Positions 1 to 23,845 of a DNA stretch of 23,845 bases are shown here, one piece after another (within the stretch, counting starts at the first letter, position 1; each line of letters starts with the position of its first letter). The stretch is from Nitrospirota bacterium (lineage in GTDB: Bacteria > Nitrospirota > Thermodesulfovibrionia > Thermodesulfovibrionales > Dissulfurispiraceae), in assembly GCA_040758355.1 (NCBI GenBank), contig JBFLWF010000031.1, positions 1 to 23,845 of the forward strand, in the 5' to 3' direction. Made by a program: the position numbers and the translations under genes. Under the pieces are notes generated by a model. The model was not told the DNA's origin and did not search any database. It saw only the letters and a list, made by a program, of their open reading frames with translations.

Positions 1-122
1 CAAAATTCGTGTTATACAGAGAAGGGCTTACGGTCTCAGAGACGAGGAGTATCTGCGCCTGAAAATACTTACATGTATGCTCAAGGAGATATAAAATGAC
101 CCACTCGATTACACGAAGAGCC
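1..122 (+). mobile_element. Right end of an ISL3-family insertion sequence (transposase C-terminus at 2..94 plus terminal inverted repeat)
   Basis: Frame 2..94 reads KIRVIQRRAYGLRDEEYLRLKILTCMLKEI*, matching the ISL3 C-terminal 'RRAYG(F/L)R' motif. The element ends in ...CACGAAGAGCC (reverse complement GGCTCTTCG, an ISL3-like IR start). An identical inverted copy lies at 23722..23843. Confidence 0.88.
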
Positions 123-4397: not shown

Positions 4398-5159
4398 CAA
4401 AAGAGGGTCTTTGATTCCTGCCTCTTTGAATCCCTTTGCCCTGAAGAGACAGCTATCGCATCTTTCGCATGGCCTTCCATCCGGCAGTGGGTCATAACAG
4501 CTCCATGTGAAGGAATAGTCGAATCCCATTTCTGCACCTTTTCTTATTATCTCTCCCTTTGTCATATAAAGGAGTGGCGCCTTTATTTTAAATTTGATTT
4601 TGCCTTCCACAGAAACTCTTGTTGCAAGGTTCGCCATCTCCTCAAATGCCTTTAGGTATTCAGGCCGACAGTCTGGATAACCGCTGTAATCCACTGCATT
4701 TGCACCGATGAAAATATCCGGTGCCTCAAGCACCTCTGCCCATCCGAGGGCAAAGGAAAGGAAAATCGTGTTGCGGGCAGGGACATAAGTAACGGGGATA
4801 TGTCCTATAGGACTTATGGTACCTATTTGTTGGAGAGGGGACTGTCCCAGATTTACGGACGGAGCAGAGCGGAGTCGTAGAATCGGGACTGTCCCCGTAT
4901 TGTCTGCGCTCTTTTTTGGTACTTCAATATCAGCCGTTAACGCCGAGCCTCCGATCTCTCTAAGGTCAAATTTTATTATCCAATGTTTCTTAGCACCGAG
5001 ACTTTCAGCTACTTTCTTTGCAGACTCAAGCTCAAGCCTGTGCCTCTGACCATAATCAAAGCTCAATGCATAAATATCGTATCCTTCTGCTTTCGCAATG
5101 GCTGCAGTTGTTGAGGAATCAATCCCGCCGCTTAAAAGGACAACCGCTTTCTTATTCAT
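4386..5159 (-). CDS. queC: 7-cyano-7-deazaguanine synthase, with an internal in-frame insertion
   Basis: [28 protein letters not shown], and the Zn motif SCY...CERCDSC. Confidence 0.96.
4800..4826 (-). repeat. Three degenerate nonamers (ATAGGTACC ATAAGTCCT ATAGGACAT) inside queC
   Basis: Encodes IGT-ISP-IGH and contains the perfect 12-bp palindrome GTCCTATAGGAC at 4802-4813. Confidence 0.6.
4837..4896. repeat. 60-bp REP-like palindromic element inside queC
   Basis: GGGGACTGTCCC at 4837-4848 and GGGACTGTCCCC at 4885-4896. The arms ggggactgtcccagatttacg and cgtagaatcgggactgtcccc form an imperfect long hairpin. Confidence 0.8.
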
Positions 5160-6316: not shown

Positions 6317-6839
6317 CAACCAGCTCTTTCCACTTTCCGTTTGACTTCAGTATGAGGTCGCATATTTCCCTGACAGCACCTCTTCCCCCGCGATTCTCTG
6401 TAACGATCATTGCCTCTGCCTTTGTCTCTTCTGTGGCGTCTGCAACAGCAACAGAGAGTGCAACCCTTTTAAAGATTGGAATATCCACAATATCATCCCC
6501 GATATATGCCACTTCTTTGTCACTGATCCCCATCTTCTCTATAAGATGTTCATAGGCGACAGACTTTATGTGGCACCTCTGATAAACCTCTGTTATGCCG
6601 AGCTCATGCGCCCTTCTCTCAACGACCTTTGAGTGCCTCCCTGTGATTATAGCAACCTTAATCCCTGCTTTTTCGAGCATCTTTATTCCATGCCCGTCCC
6701 TCACATGGAATGCCTTAAACTCATTTCCTTCGTTGTCAAGAATAATGCTTCCATCCGTTAAAACTCCATCCACATCGAGGATGAGGAGTTTGATGCTTTT
6801 GGCGATTGCCTCTATCTGCTTTTTCGTTTTTTTCATCAT
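6297..6839 (-). CDS. kdsC: 3-deoxy-D-manno-octulosonate 8-phosphate phosphatase (HAD family)
   Basis: LDVDGVLTDG, RDGHGI, IITGR, YIGDD and GGRGAVRE motifs. The start ATG at 6839 overlaps the toxin stop (ATGA). Confidence 0.92.
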   Translation of the reverse strand: MMKKTKKQIEAIAKSIKLLILDVDGVLTDGSIILDNEGNEFKAFHVRDGHGIKMLEKAGIKVAIITGRHSKVVERRAHELGITEVYQRCHIKSVAYEHLIEKMGISDKEVAYIGDDIVDIPIFKRVALSVAVADATEETKAEAMIVTENRGGRGAVREICDLILKSNGKWKELVDEYYTV

Positions 6840-7330
6840 TCTCCAACCGCCTTTAAAGCTTCTTGATAAAGGGAGTCTTTTATCCAAAAACCCGCTTTAT
6901 TTCTTAATTTATCCAGAAGTGGTTTTAGCAAGGGTACTTTATTTTCCAGTTTTGCCCTCATTAGAATTCCTATGACTCCAGTCTTCTCTATTCCATAAAA
7001 ATCCGCAATCTCTCTTGCATCATCCTCGTCAAGAAGGACAAGGGCGTTCTTTTTCTGAAGGGCATATGCAATAGTTTCCGCCTCTCCGTTATCAAGGTCT
7101 TTCTTCAAAAGCCGCACGAGTGGCGTTTCTTCAACCTTTACAACTTTTATCCATTTAGCTTTCTTTATCTCGGAAACGCCTGCTTTACCTTCCCCGTCCA
7201 GAACTGTTTCTTTCCAGACGGCCTGAGTAATATGGATTTCAGAAAAAAAATCTTTTAAGAGGCCTAACTGACCTATGATAGCCAAATTCATTATAGGAGA
7301 GGCGTTACTGACTACAAGTTTCTCTGGCAA
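6836..7330 (-). CDS. DUF3368-type PIN-domain protein (putative TA toxin)
   Basis: VSNASPIMNLA, AVWKE, LDNGEAETI, LLDEDDAR, GVIGILMRAK and GFWI motifs typical of COG2405/DUF3368. Confidence 0.85.
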   Translation of the reverse strand: MPEKLVVSNASPIMNLAIIGQLGLLKDFFSEIHITQAVWKETVLDGEGKAGVSEIKKAKWIKVVKVEETPLVRLLKKDLDNGEAETIAYALQKKNALVLLDEDDAREIADFYGIEKTGVIGILMRAKLENKVPLLKPLLDKLRNKAGFWIKDSLYQEALKAVGE

Positions 7331-7580
7331 ATTTCATGTCCTCCTTAAGCTCCTTCTCGGTATAGTGTCTTGGAATCTTGCGTTTCCCGAGTTCTTCCTG
7401 AAATTCCCATTTGCTCATTCTTGCCAGCTCTCTTGCTTTTCCAAGGGAAAGGATATGCCTCTCATATAGGATAATAGAAAGTTCTTTAAGAAGTTCTTCC
7501 TGTATCTTGTCCTTAGGGATTTTAAGTGAAAGAATAATATCTTCAGGTATTTTTAAAGTTACTCCTTGTCTTGCAGGCAT
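7305..7580 (-). CDS. UPF0175 family protein (putative antitoxin)
   Basis: LYERHILSLGKARELARMSKWEFQEELGKRKIPRHY..EELKED signature; AAGGAGG RBS before the ATG at 7580; overlaps the PIN gene. Confidence 0.85.
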   Translation of the reverse strand: MPARQGVTLKIPEDIILSLKIPKDKIQEELLKELSIILYERHILSLGKARELARMSKWEFQEELGKRKIPRHYTEKELKEDMKFARETCSQ

Positions 7581-7660
7581 TGCGCACCTCCTTCTTTCTA
7601 ATATCGGTAAATTTTTTCGGATACCCAATTAACGCAATTTTATCATAAACAAAATCTTCA

Positions 7661-9995: not shown

Positions 9996-11873
9996 TTATA
10001 CCACATGGCCGTTAATCATCGATTCCTTCAGTCTTTCTTCAAATTCCCTTATCTTGATGTCCAGTTCTTCAGTAAGCGATGACAGTTCGTCAAAAAGGGT
10101 GTCGATTCTTGCCTTTGATTCATGAATGGATTTTGAGAGTGTCTTGATAGATTGTCCTTCGCCCTTCACGGAAACTTCTAAAAGTGCCTGTGTATCCTGC
10201 TCAATCTGGTTTTCGAGGTGCATTATAGTTTCTTCCACTTCTGTAATCCTTTTCTGCAAAACCCCAAGTATTCTTGAGCGGCTGTTGATTAATTCTGCCC
10301 TGATACGGCGCATATCTTTTTTGCTCGCACCTTTTGTCTGCTCATTGTTTTGCCCCTTACTATTCTGGCTTTCGGTTATCTCGCTTTTCCATCCGACCCT
10401 GTCGAGGAAGTCCTGATATGTGCCTTCAAATACTCTCACCTTTCCATCATCAAATACAATCAGCCTTGTGGCTATGGCATGGAGGATCATCTCGCTGTGG
10501 GTCACAATCACAACAGCGCCTTCAAATGCATCTATGGCCTCAAGGAGGGAATCTATGGATTCCATATCGAGGTGGTTTGTGGGTTCGTCCAGCAAAAACA
10601 GGTTTGCCGGACTGACAAGCAATTTTCCAAGAAGCACTCTGCTTTTTTCACCTCCTGAAAGAACGGAGATTTTCTTCAGGGCATTGTCTCCCTCAAACAT
10701 CATTATACCGCATATATTTCGCGCTGCCCTGCGGTTGTATTCAGGAAGCATTTCGAGGATTTCTTCTTCAACAGTCCTTTGAGGGTCAAGACGCTGTATA
10801 TTTGTCTGTCCAAAGTATGCGAGCCTTAATTTCGGGTTATGATTAACCGTACCGCTTATTGATGGCAGTTCGCCTGCAAGCAGGTTAAGAAGAGTGGTCT
10901 TGCCCTTTCCGTTTTTCCCTATTATTGCGATGCGGTCGTTTTTCCCTATGGTTATGCTTAGTTTATCGATCAGGGAATGGCCTTCAGTGTTAAATGAAAA
11001 TGATATGTCATTTGCCTCTATAAGCCATTTGCCAAGGAAAGGCTCTGACTTAAATTCAAAATCGAGGTTTTTTATTTCTGAGATTTTTTCCAATCTCTCT
11101 TTTTTCTGGAGAGCCTTTATCTTTGACTGGACTGCGCGGGCGCGTGTGGCCTGCGCCCTAAACCTGTTTATAAACTGCTCTGTTTCCTTGCGCTTCTTTT
11201 CTTCATTTATCCTTGTCTTTTCGTAAACCTCTTCTTCCAAGAGTATCTGTTCATACAGCTTTTGCGTTGGACCTTCTATTTTCCGTATCTTACTGCTGTG
11301 GATGCCCATGGTATGCGTGGTTATACTGTCCATAAAATCCCTGTCATGGGTGATTAATATAAGCTCGTTTTTCCAGTTTCGCAAGAATTGGGTGAGCCAT
11401 CTGATGGACAGGATGTCCAGATAGTTCGTCGGCTCGTCAAGCAGCAAAAGATTAGGCTCTGAGACCAGCAGCTTTGCGAGGTTCAATCTAATCTGGTATC
11501 CGCCTGAAAGCTCCAATGGGTTACGGGTAAAATCTTCTTCAGAAAATCCAATGCCCATTAAGACGGTTTCCACCCTGTAGGTCTCATCTCTACCGTCTTC
11601 TGCAGGGCTAAGGCTCAGGCATCCCTCCTTTAAGATAGAATCCCCGGTAAAACTGATATGCTGTGAAAGATGGCCTATTTTATAATGATTCGGAATGCTG
11701 ATAACCCCTGAATCAGGCTTCTCCTCACCGAGTATCATCTTAAACAGGGTGGTCTTGCCGTGGCCGTTTCTGCCCACAAGACCGATGCGCTCGCCTGCAT
11801 TGACAGTAAAGCCTATATCGTCAAAAATAACCTGCTGGCCGTAGGCCTTATATAAATTACTGCCCTGTATCAC
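9996..11873 (-). CDS. ABC-F family ATPase (two ABC domains, no TM domain, C-terminal coiled coil)
   Basis: GRNGHGKT/LSGG/LLLDEPTNYLD and GKNGKGKT/LSGGE/LLDEPTNHLD; likely GTG start at 11873. Confidence 0.92.
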   Translation of the reverse strand: MIQGSNLYKAYGQQVIFDDIGFTVNAGERIGLVGRNGHGKTTLFKMILGEEKPDSGVISIPNHYKIGHLSQHISFTGDSILKEGCLSLSPAEDGRDETYRVETVLMGIGFSEEDFTRNPLELSGGYQIRLNLAKLLVSEPNLLLLDEPTNYLDILSIRWLTQFLRNWKNELILITHDRDFMDSITTHTMGIHSSKIRKIEGPTQKLYEQILLEEEVYEKTRINEEKKRKETEQFINRFRAQATRARAVQSKIKALQKKERLEKISEIKNLDFEFKSEPFLGKWLIEANDISFSFNTEGHSLIDKLSITIGKNDRIAIIGKNGKGKTTLLNLLAGELPSISGTVNHNPKLRLAYFGQTNIQRLDPQRTVEEEILEMLPEYNRRAARNICGIMMFEGDNALKKISVLSGGEKSRVLLGKLLVSPANLFLLDEPTNHLDMESIDSLLEAIDAFEGAVVIVTHSEMILHAIATRLIVFDDGKVRVFEGTYQDFLDRVGWKSEITESQNSKGQNNEQTKGASKKDMRRIRAELINSRSRILGVLQKRITEVEETIMHLENQIEQDTQALLEVSVKGEGQSIKTLSKSIHESKARIDTLFDELSSLTEELDIKIREFEERLKESMINGHVV

Positions 11874-12528
11874 TGGAATTTTGTTCGGCGCTCTTTGAAT
11901 AAAAGTCCATGTTGATTGCGACCATCTGCTGCTGGACTTCCCTGTAATCAATTCCAAAGTCTTTCTGAAGTGTTGCTGCTATGTCGGCATAACGTCCGAA
12001 GACTTCGCCGATATTCGAAATACTGTATTGATGAATAAAGTCCTTGCAAAGCTTATGGGCTTCGTCTGTATCTATGTATGGTGTATCCCGAAGGGCATTT
12101 TCGACCTGGATTTTAATGTCCCTTTTGATCTCATCCGTTTCTTCGCCGTTTGCACGCCTTTTAAATAGTCCTCCTATGGATAAATTTTCTATTTCGAGAC
12201 ACTTATTGAAATTCCGGCAATTCGGACAGCAGAATCTCAGCTCGTCATTTAATGTTTCGATGAGATATTTTTCGAGGATTCCCTTGAATGCACCATCTGT
12301 TTCAGGGCCTTTCAATTCCAACAGTTTTGAGACAAATCCCTCAGCGTCTTCAACAATGCCTTCCGGAGTCTCTTTTATCCTCTTTGAATTTTCAGAGCCG
12401 ATAATGCTGCCTGCGAGTATGACGTAATAACGCAAATCTTCAGGGAACATATGGAGCTTTCTCTGGAATTCCCTGTCATTGAGTTCATAAAGGATAGCGT
12501 ATAAAGAGAAGGTTTTATTGTCGGACAT
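11857..12528 (-). CDS. Hypothetical protein with a Cys cluster (CCPNCRNFNKC...C)
   Basis: 223-aa ORF co-oriented with and overlapping the ABC-F start; TGtTATAAT extended -10 upstream (-10 at 12574-12579). No family recognised. Confidence 0.75.
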   Translation of the reverse strand: MSDNKTFSLYAILYELNDREFQRKLHMFPEDLRYYVILAGSIIGSENSKRIKETPEGIVEDAEGFVSKLLELKGPETDGAFKGILEKYLIETLNDELRFCCPNCRNFNKCLEIENLSIGGLFKRRANGEETDEIKRDIKIQVENALRDTPYIDTDEAHKLCKDFIHQYSISNIGEVFGRYADIAATLQKDFGIDYREVQQQMVAINMDFYSKSAEQNSSDTGQ

Positions 12529-12670
12529 TTAGTTTGTTTCTTCAGGTTCGAATATATTCAACTGGTATGGATATTATAACATTAAATGAGGTCTGGGCAT
12601 TAGCCTTCTGGTTTCCAGTGAAAGGTGATATTATTTTATAAAAGAAAATACAGGATAGCTCGAGGAAGAA

Positions 12671-18060: not shown

Positions 18061-18913
18061 AGCCATTCACCTCTTGCCGATATTTCTTTAGAAGCAGCTT
18101 TGAAATCTCTCCCACCCTGAATTCTGTCTTATCAACCCCTTTATCAACCCTGCGGGCAGGCATTACCTCCATGGTTGTATTTGTTATAAATACCTCGGAT
18201 GCCGTGTATAGTTCTTCAGGAGCGAATTCTCCTTCCTTTACCTCAAGGCCGTTCTTTAAGGCGAGGTCTATAACCAAAGCCCTTGTTATGCCGTCGAGGA
18301 TTCCGCATTCAACAGAAGGCGTGCATAAAATTCCATTCTTTACAAAAAATATATTGCTTATCGTACCTTCTGTAAGATGGCCTGCAGCATTGAGCATTAT
18401 GGCTTCGTATGCACCTGCCTGCTTTGCCTCAATCTTTGCAAGGATGTTATTGAGGAAGTTAAGAGACTTGATTTGGGGATTGAGCGCCTCTCTGAGATTC
18501 CTTCTGACAGATGCGACTGTTAATTTTATTCCCTCTTCGTAATAAGACTTAGGATAACTCTTGAATTCATTTGTCATCACAACAAATGTTGGCTCCTTGC
18601 AGAGGTCGGGATCAAGGCCGATGGGGCCGTAACCTCTTGATATGGTCAGCCTGACATAGGCATTTGTCAGGGAGTTTGCCTTTAATGTTTCGTAGATTGC
18701 TATTTTTATATCGGGTATTTTTTTAGGAATAGCAAGACCTATAAGGGATGCAGAGCGATATAATCTTTCGATATGCTCATCGAGCATAAATACAACGCCG
18801 TCATAAACACGCATTGTCTCATATATGCCGTCTCCGTACAAAAAGCCGTGGTCGAATGCAGAGACCTTCGCATCCGATGCAGGAACGATTTTATTATTTA
18901 AATATACATACAT
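18017..18913 (-). CDS. PLP-dependent aminotransferase class IV (IlvE/PabC/Dat family)
   Basis: FDHGFLYGDGIYET, IKSLNFLNN, EG..SNIF, GILDGITR and EVFITNT motifs. Confidence 0.92.
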   Translation of the reverse strand: MYVYLNNKIVPASDAKVSAFDHGFLYGDGIYETMRVYDGVVFMLDEHIERLYRSASLIGLAIPKKIPDIKIAIYETLKANSLTNAYVRLTISRGYGPIGLDPDLCKEPTFVVMTNEFKSYPKSYYEEGIKLTVASVRRNLREALNPQIKSLNFLNNILAKIEAKQAGAYEAIMLNAAGHLTEGTISNIFFVKNGILCTPSVECGILDGITRALVIDLALKNGLEVKEGEFAPEELYTASEVFITNTTMEVMPARRVDKGVDKTEFRVGEISKLLLKKYRQEVNGYVKEKKAEGPSLWE

Positions 18914-18916
18914 TTT

Positions 18917-19258
18917 TTAAAATGCCTCCGGTATATGATTTACTTCTGCATTTCCGTCTCTGGATATGATGCTCACAATATCAAACCTTACAGGTAATTC
19001 TATTTTATTATGCTTTAGATAATAAAGGGCAATCTTTTTGAGCTTTTCCTGCTTCCTGTGATTAACGGCTTCAAATGGCTGTCCAAAGGCATCGCTGCTC
19101 CTTGCCTTAACCTCGACAAAAATAATCATATCCTTATCCCTTGCTATAATATCAGCCTCGCCGAGCGGCGTTTTGTAATTGCGCTTGAGGATCGCATAGC
19201 CGTTTTTCTTCAAATACTCCACGGCGATATCCTCGCCGCTAACACCTAAGGATTTCAT
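18917..19258 (-). CDS. yraN: YraN/UPF0102 family putative endonuclease
   Basis: GEDIAVEYL, GEADIIA, FVEVKAR and RFDIV motifs. Confidence 0.93.
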   Translation of the reverse strand: MKSLGVSGEDIAVEYLKKNGYAILKRNYKTPLGEADIIARDKDMIIFVEVKARSSDAFGQPFEAVNHRKQEKLKKIALYYLKHNKIELPVRFDIVSIISRDGNAEVNHIPEAF

Positions 19259-19263
19259 GTAAG

Positions 19264-19292
19264 ATTATACGATTTTTCAGCGCATACTTCAA
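19264..19292 (-). promoter_or_regulatory. Sigma70-type promoter TTGAAG-N17-TATAAT, 5 nt upstream of the yraN ATG
   Basis: -35 at 19287-19292, -10 at 19264-19269, ATG at 19258; no room for an RBS. Confidence 0.7.
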
Positions 19293-19353
19293 AAAGGAAG
19301 TTCAAGGAATTTTGACAAAGCTCTCTCATTCCAGATTCTCCTTCGAAAATGGT

Positions 19354-19397
19354 CATCACTGTTCTAAAATAAAAATTGCCTGTCAATTTTATTGGAT
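19354..19397. repeat. 44-bp direct repeat, copy 1
   Basis: catcactgttctaaaataaaaattgcctgtcaattttattggat; 43/44 identical to 20094..20137. Confidence 0.92.
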
Positions 19398-19427
19398 CTA
19401 TTATTGCGAAAGAATAAATGCGTGAAA

Positions 19428-19790
19428 CTAAAAAGGCAGAATCTTTACCCGTGCCCTTATTTCGTCAACTGTAATAAATGCTCCACTTTCAATGACTGAC
19501 TTGTATTTTTTAAGTGTTTGTACCAATCTGCTGCCGAGGGCTTGTGGCATAACATCTCGTGTGCGAACTTGAATAACGCTTGGGCCTTCAGAATGGGTAG
19601 CCGCCAGAAGTGCTCCAAAGTCTAAATCGTGCGTGAATACAATATAACCTCTTTCACTCGCCCACTCCATAATAGCTTTGTCGGTTGCCTTCATATCTCC
19701 CACCGCTGACCAATGAACAGCTTCCAATCCGTGCTGTTTAAATAGTTCAACCCAGTCTGGAGAAAGGTTCATGTCTATCAAGATTTTCAC
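19428..19790 (-). CDS. DUF5615 PIN-like protein (VapC45-type putative toxin)
   Basis: MKILIDMNLSP, HWS.VG...A.D..I, VFTHDLDFG.LLA and PSVIQVR motifs; GTGA/TGA overlap with the upstream gene. Confidence 0.88.
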   Translation of the reverse strand: MKILIDMNLSPDWVELFKQHGLEAVHWSAVGDMKATDKAIMEWASERGYIVFTHDLDFGALLAATHSEGPSVIQVRTRDVMPQALGSRLVQTLKKYKSVIESGAFITVDEIRARVKILPF

Positions 19791-20017
19791 GCAGAAACAA
19801 GAGGGACTTCAATCTCTTCAGATCTCCATGCAGCATAGGTAAGCGCTTCCTGAATGTCTTCTTCTTCGAGATATGGATATGCCTTCAGTATTTGGTCGTG
19901 AGTGTATCCAGATGCGATAAGTCCTACAATTGTTCCCACCGTGACCCGCATGCCCCTTATGCATGGCTTACCGCCCATCACGTTCGGATCAAATGTTATG
20001 CGTTTTAGCTCCTTCAT
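19787..20017 (-). CDS. DUF433 family protein (VapB45-type putative antitoxin)
   Basis: RITFDPNVMGGKPCIRGMRVTV...YPYLEEEDI.EAL.YAA; GAGGGG RBS; TGcTATAAT extended -10 upstream. Confidence 0.9.
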   Translation of the reverse strand: MKELKRITFDPNVMGGKPCIRGMRVTVGTIVGLIASGYTHDQILKAYPYLEEEDIQEALTYAAWRSEEIEVPLVSA

Positions 20018-20093
20018 TTTTAGCTCCCCTCTTTAAAAAATCGTTTATAATCATTATAGCACACGGAGATAAGGACTTTTGCGGCATTCCTCC

Positions 20094-20137
20094 CATCACT
20101 GCTCTAAAATAAAAATTGCCTGTCAATTTTATTGGAT
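20094..20137. repeat. 44-bp direct repeat, copy 2 (contains the stop codon of the adjacent membrane protein gene)
   Basis: catcactgctctaaaataaaaattgcctgtcaattttattggat. Confidence 0.92.
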
Positions 20138-20833
20138 ATTAAACAGCTCGGTTATATTGTCATAGCCGAGCCAATAAACTGTTGTCCAGAGAACAGCATG
20201 GATCGCTGTGATGGTTATCAAAGCAAAAATCAGTCTTGTCCGGGTTTTTAGCTCATCCCTGAAAAACATCACCGTGTAGTCCGGTCCCGACCAGAAAGAT
20301 GCAAGAGTAATTTCATAGATGAAAACAATACTTCCCGCTATTTTCGAATGAGAAAGAATGACATTTGCCATCCGGCGATATGAACGGCCAAGCGTCATGT
20401 CCCGTCCGGTCTTCTCGTATATTGCGACAAAAATTACCGATGATGGAATATCGATGACAAGCCATATACCGCAGACAGCCGTCAGATATGAAAACCCGAG
20501 TTCCTTCAATGCTATCACCAGACCAAAGCTCGATGCCGCCAAAACATAATCAAGCGATGAGTAAAATATCCTCTTAGACATTGTTCCGGTAACTTTTTTA
20601 GTTTTTGCGCCAGCGCCGTCTGCTTGATTTATATCAAAGAAAACATCAGAAGCTTCATCAAAAATCCGCCAATACGCAATCGACAGCACTGTTATTAATA
20701 ATGCTGCCGGCAATCCGATTTTCAGCCCGCCGAAGTTATATGAAACAAATCCAGCGACAGCCGTAAACAATATGCAAAACTTCACAACTATCCATGGCTT
20801 CTCCCGTAGAGCTTTCAGGGTTAAGTTTTTCAT
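20129..20833 (-). CDS. Hypothetical multi-pass membrane protein
   Basis: About 6 hydrophobic segments; likely ATG at 20833 (234 aa); no family recognised with certainty. Confidence 0.75.
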   Translation of the reverse strand: MKNLTLKALREKPWIVVKFCILFTAVAGFVSYNFGGLKIGLPAALLITVLSIAYWRIFDEASDVFFDINQADGAGAKTKKVTGTMSKRIFYSSLDYVLAASSFGLVIALKELGFSYLTAVCGIWLVIDIPSSVIFVAIYEKTGRDMTLGRSYRRMANVILSHSKIAGSIVFIYEITLASFWSGPDYTVMFFRDELKTRTRLIFALITITAIHAVLWTTVYWLGYDNITELFNIQ

Positions 20834-20840
20834 GTTATAG

Positions 20841-21293
20841 TCAGGCCGTTTTCCCTCCCTGCCTGGCTTCGCAATTGGCAATGTCGAAAACACCGGTGGT
20901 GTTTTTCAGATTAAATACAATGGCAGGAGCGATTGCCGCCAACAAGAACAGCTTCAATTTGAAGCCGATGTCCTTCTTGTGAACAAAGACATAGATAAAA
21001 TAAAAGCTCAAAAAGAATATCAGTGGGTCCAAGATTCCAAAAAATGACCAGAGGAACATGATTATACGGCTGTCTATATTTGTCCAAACAACAAGACTAA
21101 AAAAAACCCACAAGGAAAAAACTATCGAGAGAGATAATAAAATTTTACTTGCTAAATTTCTACTCTTATAAAATATAAAAAGACCGAAAAACAAAGCAAC
21201 AATAGCCGTTGGAATGTGTGAGTAATAGAGCAAATGAGGAATCGAATCGGAAAAAATGAAATAATTTGGCGCTGGTATATCCGTGCAAAACAT
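20841..21293 (-). pseudogene. Probably truncated N-terminal 7TM-type sensor domain of a histidine kinase
   Basis: 150 aa with about 4-5 TM segments (LLYYSHIPTAIVALFFGLF...WVFFSLVVW...FDIANCEA), then an abrupt RQGGKTA* ending. It resembles, from recall, HisKA_7TM-like heads of CPR kinases; no HisKA/HATPase domain follows. Confidence 0.5.
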
Positions 21294-21294
21294 C

Positions 21295-21819
21295 TTATTT
21301 TTTCTTAATTTTGTTAATTTTATCTTGCAAAAAATATTGGAAGTATCCGTCATATCTTTTTTGCAATTCCGGAATTTTCCAGTCATTGTCAGTCACCCAG
21401 CCGCGGCAATTTGACGATCCGCAAAGACATTTGAATTTGTACGGCTTTTCTCCTTTGGCTCTGTAAAGGCACATCGCGTAATCAAAGGTTACTTCCTCGC
21501 CTTTTTTTATATCCCTCATCGCTTCCAAAAATATCTGCCCGCGAAACCCGGCATTCGGATTGCAACTGTGATTAAAATAGCTTGAAGTTTCAATCCCCGG
21601 ACCATTTAAAACTAGGTTTTCGGAAATTTGAAGGCCAGAATCTCTGATTTCTTTTGGCAATTTCAATTCTTCCTTTGTCGTCATAACATAACCTCCGGCG
21701 ATATTTAACATCTCACCTCTTTTAATATTTTCTTCCGCGAACACGCCATTGCCGCAATTCTTCGTTTTTCTTACTTTTAATTTTGGATTTGTCCAGTCAA
21801 AAGATTTTTTATTTTTCAT
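21295..21819 (-). CDS. SET-domain protein-lysine methyltransferase with post-SET motif
   Basis: GNGVFA, YFNHSCNPN, GEEVTFDY and CLCGSSNCRG motifs; start at 21819 (GGAG) or 21834. Confidence 0.92.
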   Translation of the reverse strand: MKNKKSFDWTNPKLKVRKTKNCGNGVFAEENIKRGEMLNIAGGYVMTTKEELKLPKEIRDSGLQISENLVLNGPGIETSSYFNHSCNPNAGFRGQIFLEAMRDIKKGEEVTFDYAMCLYRAKGEKPYKFKCLCGSSNCRGWVTDNDWKIPELQKRYDGYFQYFLQDKINKIKKK

Positions 21820-21840
21820 ACTCCACAATGCCATTTTGAA

Positions 21841-22335
21841 TTACACATTCATAAATTTTTTGTTTTTCTTGAAGTATTCGGGATCTTTCCAGTCGTTGCC
21901 GGTGATTATTTTTCTGCAATTTTTTGATCCGCAACGACAACGCATTTTATATTTCGGATCAGTAACTGAAAAACCATAATCTTGGGTTAATTCCTCTCCC
22001 GCCTTAACATTTTTTATCAAAACCAAATCGCCTTTTTTATTGAAGCCCATATTTGGATCGCAGCTATGATTGGAAAACCATGACATCGGGAGGTAATTTA
22101 AATCCGGAACAGAATAAAACCCATCATAAACCTGTGTACAAAAATCGGTTATTACCTTGCTTGTTATTTTATCTAATTCTTCATATGTTTTCTTGCTAAA
22201 ATATTTTTCATTGCAAGAGAATGTTTTGTTTATTACCGTGTCTTTTTTCAATGAACGGAGAGCGAAAAGACCAACTTCTCCCGGAAGCATTTTTGATGGC
22301 TTTACTGTGATTATGGCTTTTGGAAATTTTTTCAT
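21841..22335 (-). CDS. SET-domain protein-lysine methyltransferase with post-SET motif
   Basis: VGLFA, FSNHSCDPN, GEELTQDY and CRCGSKNCRK motifs. Confidence 0.92.
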   Translation of the reverse strand: MKKFPKAIITVKPSKMLPGEVGLFALRSLKKDTVINKTFSCNEKYFSKKTYEELDKITSKVITDFCTQVYDGFYSVPDLNYLPMSWFSNHSCDPNMGFNKKGDLVLIKNVKAGEELTQDYGFSVTDPKYKMRCRCGSKNCRKIITGNDWKDPEYFKKNKKFMNV

Positions 22336-22475
22336 AACACTTTTTTAAAATCTAAATTATTCTCCCTCGCCCAGTCAATTATATACCCATTTACGCTTGG
22401 CGGGTAGCAAAATTACATTTTTCATTTCTTTAATATTATCGCGACTGATCATTTCTTCAGATGTATATAGATCGC

Positions 22476-23597
22476 TCACAAAATAAATTCCAGATAATTA
22501 TCCCTGCTTATAACTTTGTAATTCGCGTTTTTGTATGTTTTCAGCCATTCTTTAGGCGGATGCTTTTTGCCTTTTGACCATTTTATTTCATAACCGAAAA
22601 GTTTGCCGTCCCTGTCTTCTACCAGATCAATCTCATAGCCGCTGTAAGCGCGCCAAAAATACGTATAGCCGTGTATTGATTCGTAAGAAAGCTTTTTCAG
22701 CCGCTCGCAAAAAATGAAATTTTCCCACAGCGCGCCGACATCATTCCTGTTTTCCAATTCGTTAAATTGCGCTATCACGGCATTGCGGATGCCGTTATCA
22801 AGAAAATAATATTTCATTTTTTTGGTCACTTCCTTTCTGAGATTACGGCTGAATCCGCCCACTGAACGGATAACGAAACTTTTTTCCAGCAAATCCAAAT
22901 AACGCGCGACTGTTCTTATGTTCACGGAGAGCTGTCCGGCCAATTCATTCAAAGAAACAAGATTACCGATTTGAAAAGCCAAAAGCTTCAACAAATTCAG
23001 AAGCGTTTTGGGAGATTTGATATTTTCCAAGGCCAGAATATCTTTAAGCAAATATGAGTCAACGATTTCGGCTAGTATTTTTACTTTTTCTTTTTTGGTT
23101 TTGGCGGTAACAACCTCCGGATAAGAGCCGAAAACAAGAAATTCATCCAGCTTTTCTTTCAACTCATAACGATTGTAAATGGCGGATAATTCTTTCTGGG
23201 AAATCGGGTAAAGTATGATTGTCTCTTTCCGGCCGGTCAGCGGTTCGCCGATTTGTTGCGAAAGGTCAAATGATGACGAGCCAGTAGCGATAACCTGCAT
23301 TCTCTTTGCTTGATCCGCTATTATCTTAAGTCCGGTTCCTATACCTGGTATCATCTGGGCTTCGTCAATCGCCAAGAGTTCGTAACCTGCGACATATTCA
23401 AGAATTTTTTCAAAATCCCCGGAGCCCAGAATATTTTGCACTCTTATATTGTCTCCATTATCATATTTAAATTTGAGTTTCGTTCCGTCAAGAAAATTTT
23501 CCAGCAGAGTTGTTTTGCCAACGCGCCTCGGGCCATAGATAACCAGAACCTTCCCCTGTTTTAAAAGTTTTCCTATTTTGTAATGCCTTTTTATCAT
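22476..23597 (-). CDS. AAA+ ATPase (AAA_14 plus DUF4143, C-terminal PD-(D/E)XK-like motif)
   Basis: GPRRVGKT, IDEAQ, ATGSSS, LTGR, GSYPE, YFLDNGIRN, WENF and EIDLV...YEIKW motifs. Confidence 0.9.
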   Translation of the reverse strand: MIKRHYKIGKLLKQGKVLVIYGPRRVGKTTLLENFLDGTKLKFKYDNGDNIRVQNILGSGDFEKILEYVAGYELLAIDEAQMIPGIGTGLKIIADQAKRMQVIATGSSSFDLSQQIGEPLTGRKETIILYPISQKELSAIYNRYELKEKLDEFLVFGSYPEVVTAKTKKEKVKILAEIVDSYLLKDILALENIKSPKTLLNLLKLLAFQIGNLVSLNELAGQLSVNIRTVARYLDLLEKSFVIRSVGGFSRNLRKEVTKKMKYYFLDNGIRNAVIAQFNELENRNDVGALWENFIFCERLKKLSYESIHGYTYFWRAYSGYEIDLVEDRDGKLFGYEIKWSKGKKHPPKEWLKTYKNANYKVISRDNYLEFIL

Positions 23598-23604
23598 CAA
23601 AACA

Positions 23605-23649
23605 ACTGTATATTAACTACATAAATTTGTCAAATTTTATGCAGTAATA
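23605..23649 (-). promoter_or_regulatory. Promoter TTGACA-N17-TACAGT overlapped by a ~39-bp imperfect palindrome
   Basis: -35 at 23628-23633, -10 at 23605-23610. Arms: tattaactacataaatttg (23611-23629) and caaattttatgcagtaata (23631-23649). Confidence 0.6.
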
Positions 23650-23721
23650 ATGCAAAGATTGGGATTGGCCCTGCTGTTTTATATAGCGCCATATAGCGAT
23701 TCTGCCCTACATTTTTTATAT

Positions 23722-23845
23722 GGCTCTTCGTGTAATCGAGTGGGTCATTTTATATCTCCTTGAGCATACATGTAAGTATTTTCAGGCGCAGATACTCCTC
23801 GTCTCTGAGACCGTAAGCCCTTCTCTGTATAACACGAATTTTGTT
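23722..23845 (-). mobile_element. Right end of a second copy of the same ISL3-family IS (transposase C-terminus at 23750..23845)
   Basis: 23722..23843 is the exact reverse complement of 1..122; it begins GGCTCTTCGTG. Confidence 0.88.

Follow-up and report, generated by a model that had tools for sequence, protein, structure and literature searches.

The DNA considered here is a window of 23,845 bp, the entire contig C31 (JBFLWF010000031.1) of a Nitrospirota assembly (GCA_040758355.1, here G000; 2.77 Mb in 93 contigs, completeness 99.18%, contamination 0.32%), and its right-hand part belongs to an accessory island. The evidence points to a real, two-copy and multi-allele island in a Dissulfurispira-like chromosome, with a core likely derived from the candidate phyla radiation (CPR, Patescibacteria). 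This core comprises hyp254 (a 254-aa hypothetical gene), two SET-domain genes (SET1 and SET2) and the N-terminal head of a membrane histidine kinase. We lean towards a reading in which the Patescibacteria-like DNA, now at two chromosomal sites, was captured repeatedly via natural transformation and anchored recombination.

Island A begins in the window beside yraN and runs through an ISL3 transposon into contig C75, which holds hyp254, a PurD-like gene with a frameshift and the tail of speH. A second copy of the block, in island B, lies at C52:7108-9370 (89.8% identical) in the order speH tail, PurD-like gene, hyp254, SET2, SET1, kinase head, membrane gene, a weakly beta-barrel-like gene and toxin-antitoxin (TA) modules. 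Island A is flanked by yraN and a gene at C9:2467, and island B by an FNR-type gene and a cluster on C25; the far end is common to both islands (C9:925-1981 vs C25:281-1337, 94%), as is the near end. Empty arrangements of both sites occur in relatives, with yraN beside the C9:2467 gene in G003, G011 and G019 and the FNR gene beside the C25 cluster in G002 and G003, and other accessory genes occupy these sites in G001, G002 and G004. Homology to relatives stops at position 19321 or earlier (at 19321 in G001), and a DNA-level comparison with 40 relatives found the block in none of them, apart from short pieces and the TA pair. Missing at this site from close relatives, atypical in composition and part of the host chromosome, the element is a horizontally acquired genomic island.

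The compositional profile suggested in an initial annotation of the window singles out the same DNA. Positions 20858-23721, a stretch picked after inspection, have a dinucleotide distance of 0.155, above that of all 1806 sliding windows of the genome, with CpG odds of 1.25 against 0.76 for the genome and a G+C fraction (GC) of 0.372. The AT-rich shift that the annotation had placed at about 20.1 kb is present but starts near 20.86 kb, GC being 0.423 at 20094-20857, 0.359 at 20858-22335 and 0.442 in the backbone. Foreign composition spans hyp254 to the membrane gene and includes the AAA_14 gene; the PurD-like gene and the TA pair are host-like. The next-scoring atypical windows of G000 (on C16, C22 and C25) contain restriction/defence-like or Lys-rich genes.

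The block is resident in the host chromosome, as we are very nearly certain, and is not a chimera. The evidence comes from assembled contigs of sequencing runs (X1, X2, X3 and X4), not raw reads; the shares of runs X5-X13 were small. A single 5308-bp contig of X3, a run from another study (record 18), carries yraN (window positions 18915-19114), the TA pair, the membrane gene and SET2; the X3 backbone has 132 differences over ~3,770 bp and that of X1 has 12 in 3350 bp. Contigs of X1 span 18606-19392 (yraN to repeat), 19368-20095 (TA pair) and 20418-21064 (kinase cut), and X1 record 8 runs from 21795 (SET2) past 23721 into C75 sequence without ISL3. Depth in X1, which represents a related strain, is 180.5 over AAA_14, 192-249 over the backbone and 319 over the shared membrane part; coverage in X4 is of yraN and the TA pair only. 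In addition, a 72,033-bp contig named Nitrospirota encodes copy-B proteins (MFZ6006840.1). The initial annotation had only weakly favoured one genome and had proposed coverage and junctions as a check; the bridging contigs, the 8-bp duplication of ISL3, the host-level depth and the Nitrospirota-named copy B strengthen that preference considerably. An assembly chimera or bin contamination fusing a CPR contig to the host would be compatible with the fragmentation into 93 contigs and with junction support that comes from contigs; X1 may itself derive from the source sample, and a single campaign may lie behind X2 and X3. Against a chimera, however, stand two separate host junctions (C31 and C52), a host ISL3 with its target duplication within the block and an empty site in X1, the single X3 contig joining yraN to SET2, depth at host level, and copy B in another Nitrospirota-named assembly. 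This explanation is largely refuted, and the probability left to it is very small.

A CPR (Moranbacteria-like) origin of the core is likely from comparison gene by gene. The kinase head has 158 full-length relatives; all five organism-named proteins among the 120 matches listed are CPR (48-59% identity), a 63% match clusters with a Moranbacteria protein, no homologue was found in 300 other Nitrospirota, and in a quick tree the nearest named neighbour is Moraniibacteriota (support 88). For SET1, seven of the 120 matches listed carry an organism name, six being CPR (54-59%) and one 'uncultured bacterium'. Matches of SET and kinase have seven contig sizes in common (chance mean 0.7, maximum 5), one of them that of a Patescibacteria contig, which suggests that the two genes are neighbours in the donor group. 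The expectation of CPR-type genes throughout is thus supported for the kinase head and SET1, whose classified matches among those listed are CPR, and is not supported for the membrane gene and AAA_14. The membrane protein was absent from 400 Nitrospirota, and the only taxon name outside the strain group among its 33 matches is a Muproteobacterium; its homologues have a contig size of 468,885 bp in common with a hyp254 homologue and one of 8294 bp with a SET homologue, the latter at chance level. AAA_14, a PDC-S01 match, has homologues in 18 of 150 genomes of the class Thermodesulfovibrionia (best 63-67%); it is a widespread candidate defence gene, not diagnostic of CPR despite its foreign composition. 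The searches turned up no donor genome of near-identical sequence, the relatives with a name being 48-63% identical: a search of genome contigs with SET1 gave three distant loci, and one of metagenomes with a 93.8% AAA homologue gave one partial locus. Scans of viral contigs yielded no hyp254, one PurD-like gene and no match to a 44-bp repeat pattern. Proteins in Logan and JGI are 88-99% identical, one 4131-bp contig being equal in size to X1 record 8, which has host depth.

Divergence between the copies is uneven, with identities of 70% for the PurD-like protein, 64% for hyp254, 78% for SET2, 91% for SET1, 98% for the kinase head and 93% for the membrane protein. The ratio of nonsynonymous to synonymous rates (dN/dS) is 0.06-0.25 where measurable, and hyp254 (proportion of synonymous differences 0.76) and SET2 (dS 1.87) are near or at synonymous saturation. 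CpG odds are 1.0-1.5 in both alleles, compared with 0.76 in the host, and in both copies foreign composition starts sharply at the PurD-like/hyp254 border. Since divergence inside the host should have erased this signal, alleles that are saturated yet foreign likely diverged in donors and arrived separately. Several donor alleles, captured separately, are therefore probable as judged from sequence, rather than the one multi-gene transfer first proposed. Further alleles add to this diversity: a third hyp254 3' end lies downstream of AAA_14, in X2 the hyp254 3' end is repeated on either side of AAA_14, and X1 and X3 hold further block variants. Across the kinase cut 609 of 611 bp are identical between copies, as are 127 of 127 in the speH tail; the same cut within near-identical bases indicates a single origin of the cut, followed by its spread through duplication or conversion.

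Under the favoured sequence of events, Patescibacteria DNA would have been taken up by natural transformation, probably more than once, through the comEC/dprA/comM/yraN set, and a homologous module already resident would have served as the anchor for recombination. One homologous anchor would have been combined with an illegitimate joint, placed at the kinase cut and next to AAA_14. The sensing kinase would have arrived broken; gene conversion between the two copies may have followed, with the ISL3 insertion last. Homology-facilitated illegitimate recombination is known in natural transformation, and its combination of a homologous anchor with a truncating joint fits both the kinase cut and the hyp254 remnant, the type of joint being deduced here. 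comEC, dprA and comM score above cut-offs in G000, and yraN lies in the window. YraN and ComM are described, in the available text of PMC13663708, as processing transformation D-loops; comM, dprA, comEC and yraN all occur in G000 as a candidate competence set. Several facts count against uptake by this route: comEC is common (10 of 14 control genomes), competence genes are no proof of uptake, both island interiors lack assembly, and G000 encodes, besides these genes, a TrwC relaxase and an integron integrase.

The main rival to transformation is a mobile vehicle, i.e. a mobilisable or integrative element that took up CPR DNA elsewhere and delivered it to a host that never met the donor. Such an element would account for the far and near ends common to both islands, the TrwC relaxase on C51, the IS481-like remnant at the near end, the hyp254 homologues of G278 and G174, whose neighbours include a membrane gene, an XRE regulator and a TA pair, and the PurD-like island within a phage contig. 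The alleles, however, form a mosaic (64-98% aa) and not two copies of one element, the repeat pattern has no match in viral contigs, and the assembled parts of both islands, which do not include the interiors, show no linked integrase, transfer gene or att pair. We regard delivery by a mobile element as unlikely. The integron integrase, intI at C3:122521-123477, is not linked to the island, and no common intergenic repeat was found between the cargo genes. Separately, in the region C3:122491-129324 this integrase, which scores above cut-off, precedes a series of small ORFs that is likely a cassette array. C51 (locus L036) and C62 contain the TrwC relaxase, replication-like and helix-turn-helix genes and, on C62, a coupling-protein-like ORF recognised by eye; judged partly by eye, they are an integrated mobilisable element broken by insertion sequences (IS).

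With regard to the donor, the block could instead be a broad-host accessory cluster whose CPR labels reflect naming bias, the source being another CpG-rich, AT-rich bacterium. The membrane family named only in a Muproteobacterium, Atlas neighbours that include Thermodesulfobacteriota and Acidobacteriota clusters, SET1-like genes in the Nitrospirota family f23 and the spread of AAA_14 through the class would all agree with this. Further points weigh against a CPR origin. Organism names are attached to only 7 of 120 SET and 5 of 120 kinase matches listed, so that few labels underlie the CPR call; one SET match lacking an organism label (P0074) is identical to a Nitrospirota protein; SET1 homologues in 7 of 12 f23 genomes are 54-57% identical, as close as the named CPR matches; and the SET1 and kinase trees are quick trees with forks mostly open. 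For hyp254 none of the eight matches looked up has a taxon name, and 2 of 300 Nitrospirota have homologues of 29-36% identity. The PurD-like gene has the composition of the host and was seen in a phage as well as in 3 of 300 Nitrospirota. Nevertheless, every organism-named kinase and classified SET1 match listed is CPR, SET and kinase occur together on a Patescibacteria contig (matched by size), and the kinase head is missing from all 300 Nitrospirota, which makes a non-CPR donor improbable. A derivation of SET1 from f23 was rejected because the f23 homologues fall in a separate clade (support 100 in a quick, weakly resolved tree), and the f23 gene is possibly an older, separate transfer. As an independent observation, the fixed SET1-like gene of f23 (L049-L055) adjoins a typA-like gene and falls within the radiation of CPR-named SETs.

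Other occurrences of cargo families were also seen. Loci L095:8169-11133 (G278) and L096:8096-10653 (G174), from two other Thermodesulfovibrionia families, contain a hyp254 homologue accompanied by an XRE regulator, a TA pair and a gene for a small membrane protein; the G278 homologue is a GNAT-like fusion, and the membrane proteins of both were rejected as homologues of that of the window (4.3 and 0.3 bits). Locus L079:7911-11473 is an island of 35% GC, with PurD-like ligase, decarboxylase-like and transporter-like genes, in a phage contig of 60% GC.

Some information about function can be garnered from the cargo. The speH tail matches AdoMet_dc. The PurD-like gene on C52/C75 is GARS-like but scores 99 bits against TIGR00877, with a cut-off of 288, and so does not qualify as PurD (glycinamide ribonucleotide synthetase); a separate and distant purD-type match lies on C14. 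The model of hyp254 is of high confidence (pLDDT, predicted local distance difference test, 96), and its best fold matches are BshC and class I lysyl-tRNA synthetase (Z 7.4, root-mean-square deviation 4.8, 211 and 182 residues aligned), a weak resemblance, with a Z that common arrangements also reach. No usable Atlas match, PDB sequence match or Foldseek match at E 0.001 was found for hyp254. Fusions of hyp254 with SET occur in homologues P0446 and P0458. The SET protein matches BurB (PDB 9l4t) at E 8.7e-07 and human KMT2A at 8.8e-10. BurB is a methionine S-methyltransferase. The proteins here are like BurB and other bacterial SET proteins (PF00856) in their SET and post-SET motifs; a small-molecule substrate is deduced from neighbours only. 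The hyp254-SET fusion together with speH and the ATP-grasp ligase suggests small-molecule modification rather than protein methylation, and speH, the PurD-like ATP-grasp ligase, the HUP-fold enzyme and the SETs are predicted to make or modify a small amine or amide. Given the truncated sensor and the frameshifted ligase of copy A, the module may be decaying.

The host is an LPS (lipopolysaccharide)-making Nitrospirota, as follows from its kds/lpt genes and its backbone, which is Dissulfurispira-like: its proteins share 90% clusters with ones that bear the names Thermodesulfovibrionales and Dissulfurispira sp. The LPS genes of the initial annotation are confirmed, kdsA scoring above the NCBIfam cut-off and kdsC, kdsD and lptF/G being best matches at or near cut-off. 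The five co-oriented genes are likewise present as minus-strand ORFs of the families given, and the identical ISL3 ends are found as 123 bp at both window ends, 100% complementary and representing the same end of the transposon. Its transposase matches NF033550 (306 bits, cut-off 180), and with an 8-bp target duplication the element belongs to ISL3. G000 has 26 A-side and 24 B-side ends, or ~25 copies, and 21 of the 26 pair via an exact 8-bp duplication (shuffled mean 1.2). The order C31-C1 thus paired at the left end is also present in G022. The right end pairs with C75, where the block continues, so that ISL3 does not bound the block as had been supposed; with ISL3 inside the block and the same site ISL3-free in X1, its role as an island border or composite transposon was rejected, and its insertion into the island is the latest event. 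The 44-bp direct repeat also exists as described (98% identical, with a third copy on C52), yet it brackets the DUF433/DUF5615 pair and not the block, whose homology border lies at or before 19321; it was consequently rejected as attL/attR. Nor was it retained as a structured RNA (z 0.72, -0.12 and 0.05) or as part of an intact IS481 end, the match being limited to the adjacent 27-28 bp. Promoter and terminator counts are at chance level. Joining the island interiors via IS3 target duplications was not used, these being too short to trust, and a contig upstream of the common speH tail was searched for and not found.

Features of the window at the island and at the two contig ends (positions in bp).
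Feature	Position	Strand	Remarks
ISL3 end, 3' side of transposase	1..122		contig break; 8-bp duplication pairs with C1
yraN, last backbone gene before island	18917..19258	-	adjoins C9:2467 gene in G003, G011, G019
Accessory island A, portion in window	19322..23721	-	runs through ISL3 into C75
44-bp repeat, copy 1	19354..19397		direct repeat
DUF5615 PIN-like toxin	19428..19790	-	host-like composition; in G004 at other insertion site
DUF433 antitoxin partner	19787..20017	-	partner of the DUF5615 toxin
IS481-like 3' end remnant	20066..20093	-	matches C51:812-839, end of rve_3 ORF
44-bp repeat, copy 2	20094..20137		gives membrane gene its last codons and stop; C52 copy ends differently
Membrane protein, 234 aa, rare family	20129..20833	-	ORF
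Histidine kinase head, N-terminal 147 aa of a 550-610 aa membrane kinase	20841..21293	-	identical cut in both copies
SET1, SET and post-SET; NHSC, DY and CxCG motifs	21295..21819	-	ORF, motifs
SET2, SET and post-SET	21841..22335	-	ORF
Third hyp254 allele, last ~24 codons	22332..22409	-	stop overlaps SET2 start
AAA_14/DUF4143 ATPase, PADLOC PDC-S01 candidate defence gene	22476..23597	-	absent from copy B
8-bp target duplication of ISL3 insertion	23714..23721		repeated on C75; empty site in run X1
ISL3 end inserted within island	23722..23845		end identity, 8-bp pairing, NF033550

Around the insertion site of island A, yraN (18917-19258) and comM (C9:10143-11639) bracket a variable slot and are ~8 kb apart when it is empty. 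In G001 the yraN slot (L021:6300-14800) holds about a dozen small lipoprotein/secreted genes with duplicated starts. Elsewhere in the window, imperfect palindromic elements resembling repetitive extragenic palindromes (REP) lie at 124-208 and 4831-4901, the one near 4835 being multicopy genome-wide; a UPF0175/DUF3368 PIN-type TA pair lies at 6836-7628 between kdsC and kdsD; and at 11847-12644 inverted arms of 32 nt (72% complementary) surround an orphan ORF (11857-12528, 223 aa).

Transfers between CPR and other bacteria have been predicted in metagenome-assembled genomes (MAGs) from aquifer and sludge (PMC12455944 and PMC10031880, in their accessible parts). These resemble the present case in cross-phylum exchange of genes or fragments (518-5,730 bp in PMC10031880) and in similar habitats. 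They concern mainly gains by CPR, whereas the present recipient lies outside the CPR and carries two copies and several alleles, with support at the junctions. Table S4 of PMC12455944, as far as accessible, has 27 Nitrospirota events, none with a Patescibacteria partner, and no Nitrospirota entry was found in the accessible supplement of PMC10031880. A survey of titles and abstract starts, with most subscription papers outside its coverage, found no report of such an island and no paper joining the SET domain with Patescibacteria.

The recipient group itself has been linked to CPR. According to the accessible part of PMC11974145, the host predicted for a CPR bin is a Thermodesulfovibrionales MAG, shown in a figure highlighting Dissulfurispiraceae, and that of PMC8672522 reports co-occurrence of Patescibacteria with Thermodesulfovibrionia. 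Those host predictions rest on co-occurrence and metabolic fit and involve the same recipient group; the present finding is sequence evidence of DNA flow and not of attachment. The same groundwater study (PMC8672522) reports, in the part available, that strong evidence for lateral transfer is lacking even where CPR-host pairs are confirmed, and Moranbacteria are named, in the accessible text of PMC10811913, only as candidate episymbionts of Thiothrix. A host-symbiont link, as the initial annotation had proposed, is plausible. That the Dissulfurispira-like lineage hosts Moranbacteria-type episymbionts, and that the islands are an ongoing log of DNA passing repeatedly from symbiont to host, is possible but doubtful.

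The CPR-type core would represent gene flow from symbionts into a larger bacterium, without establishing that bacterium as their host, and is a warning that CPR-like genes need not be contamination when they appear in a MAG from outside the CPR. If free DNA or a mobile element was the source, the island would be well documented but fairly ordinary. For most Parcubacteria the hosts are unknown, and a CPR-type insert in a predicted host group names a specific pair to test. If the host-symbiont reading is true, the host of an uncultured CPR lineage would be readable from the host's own genome.

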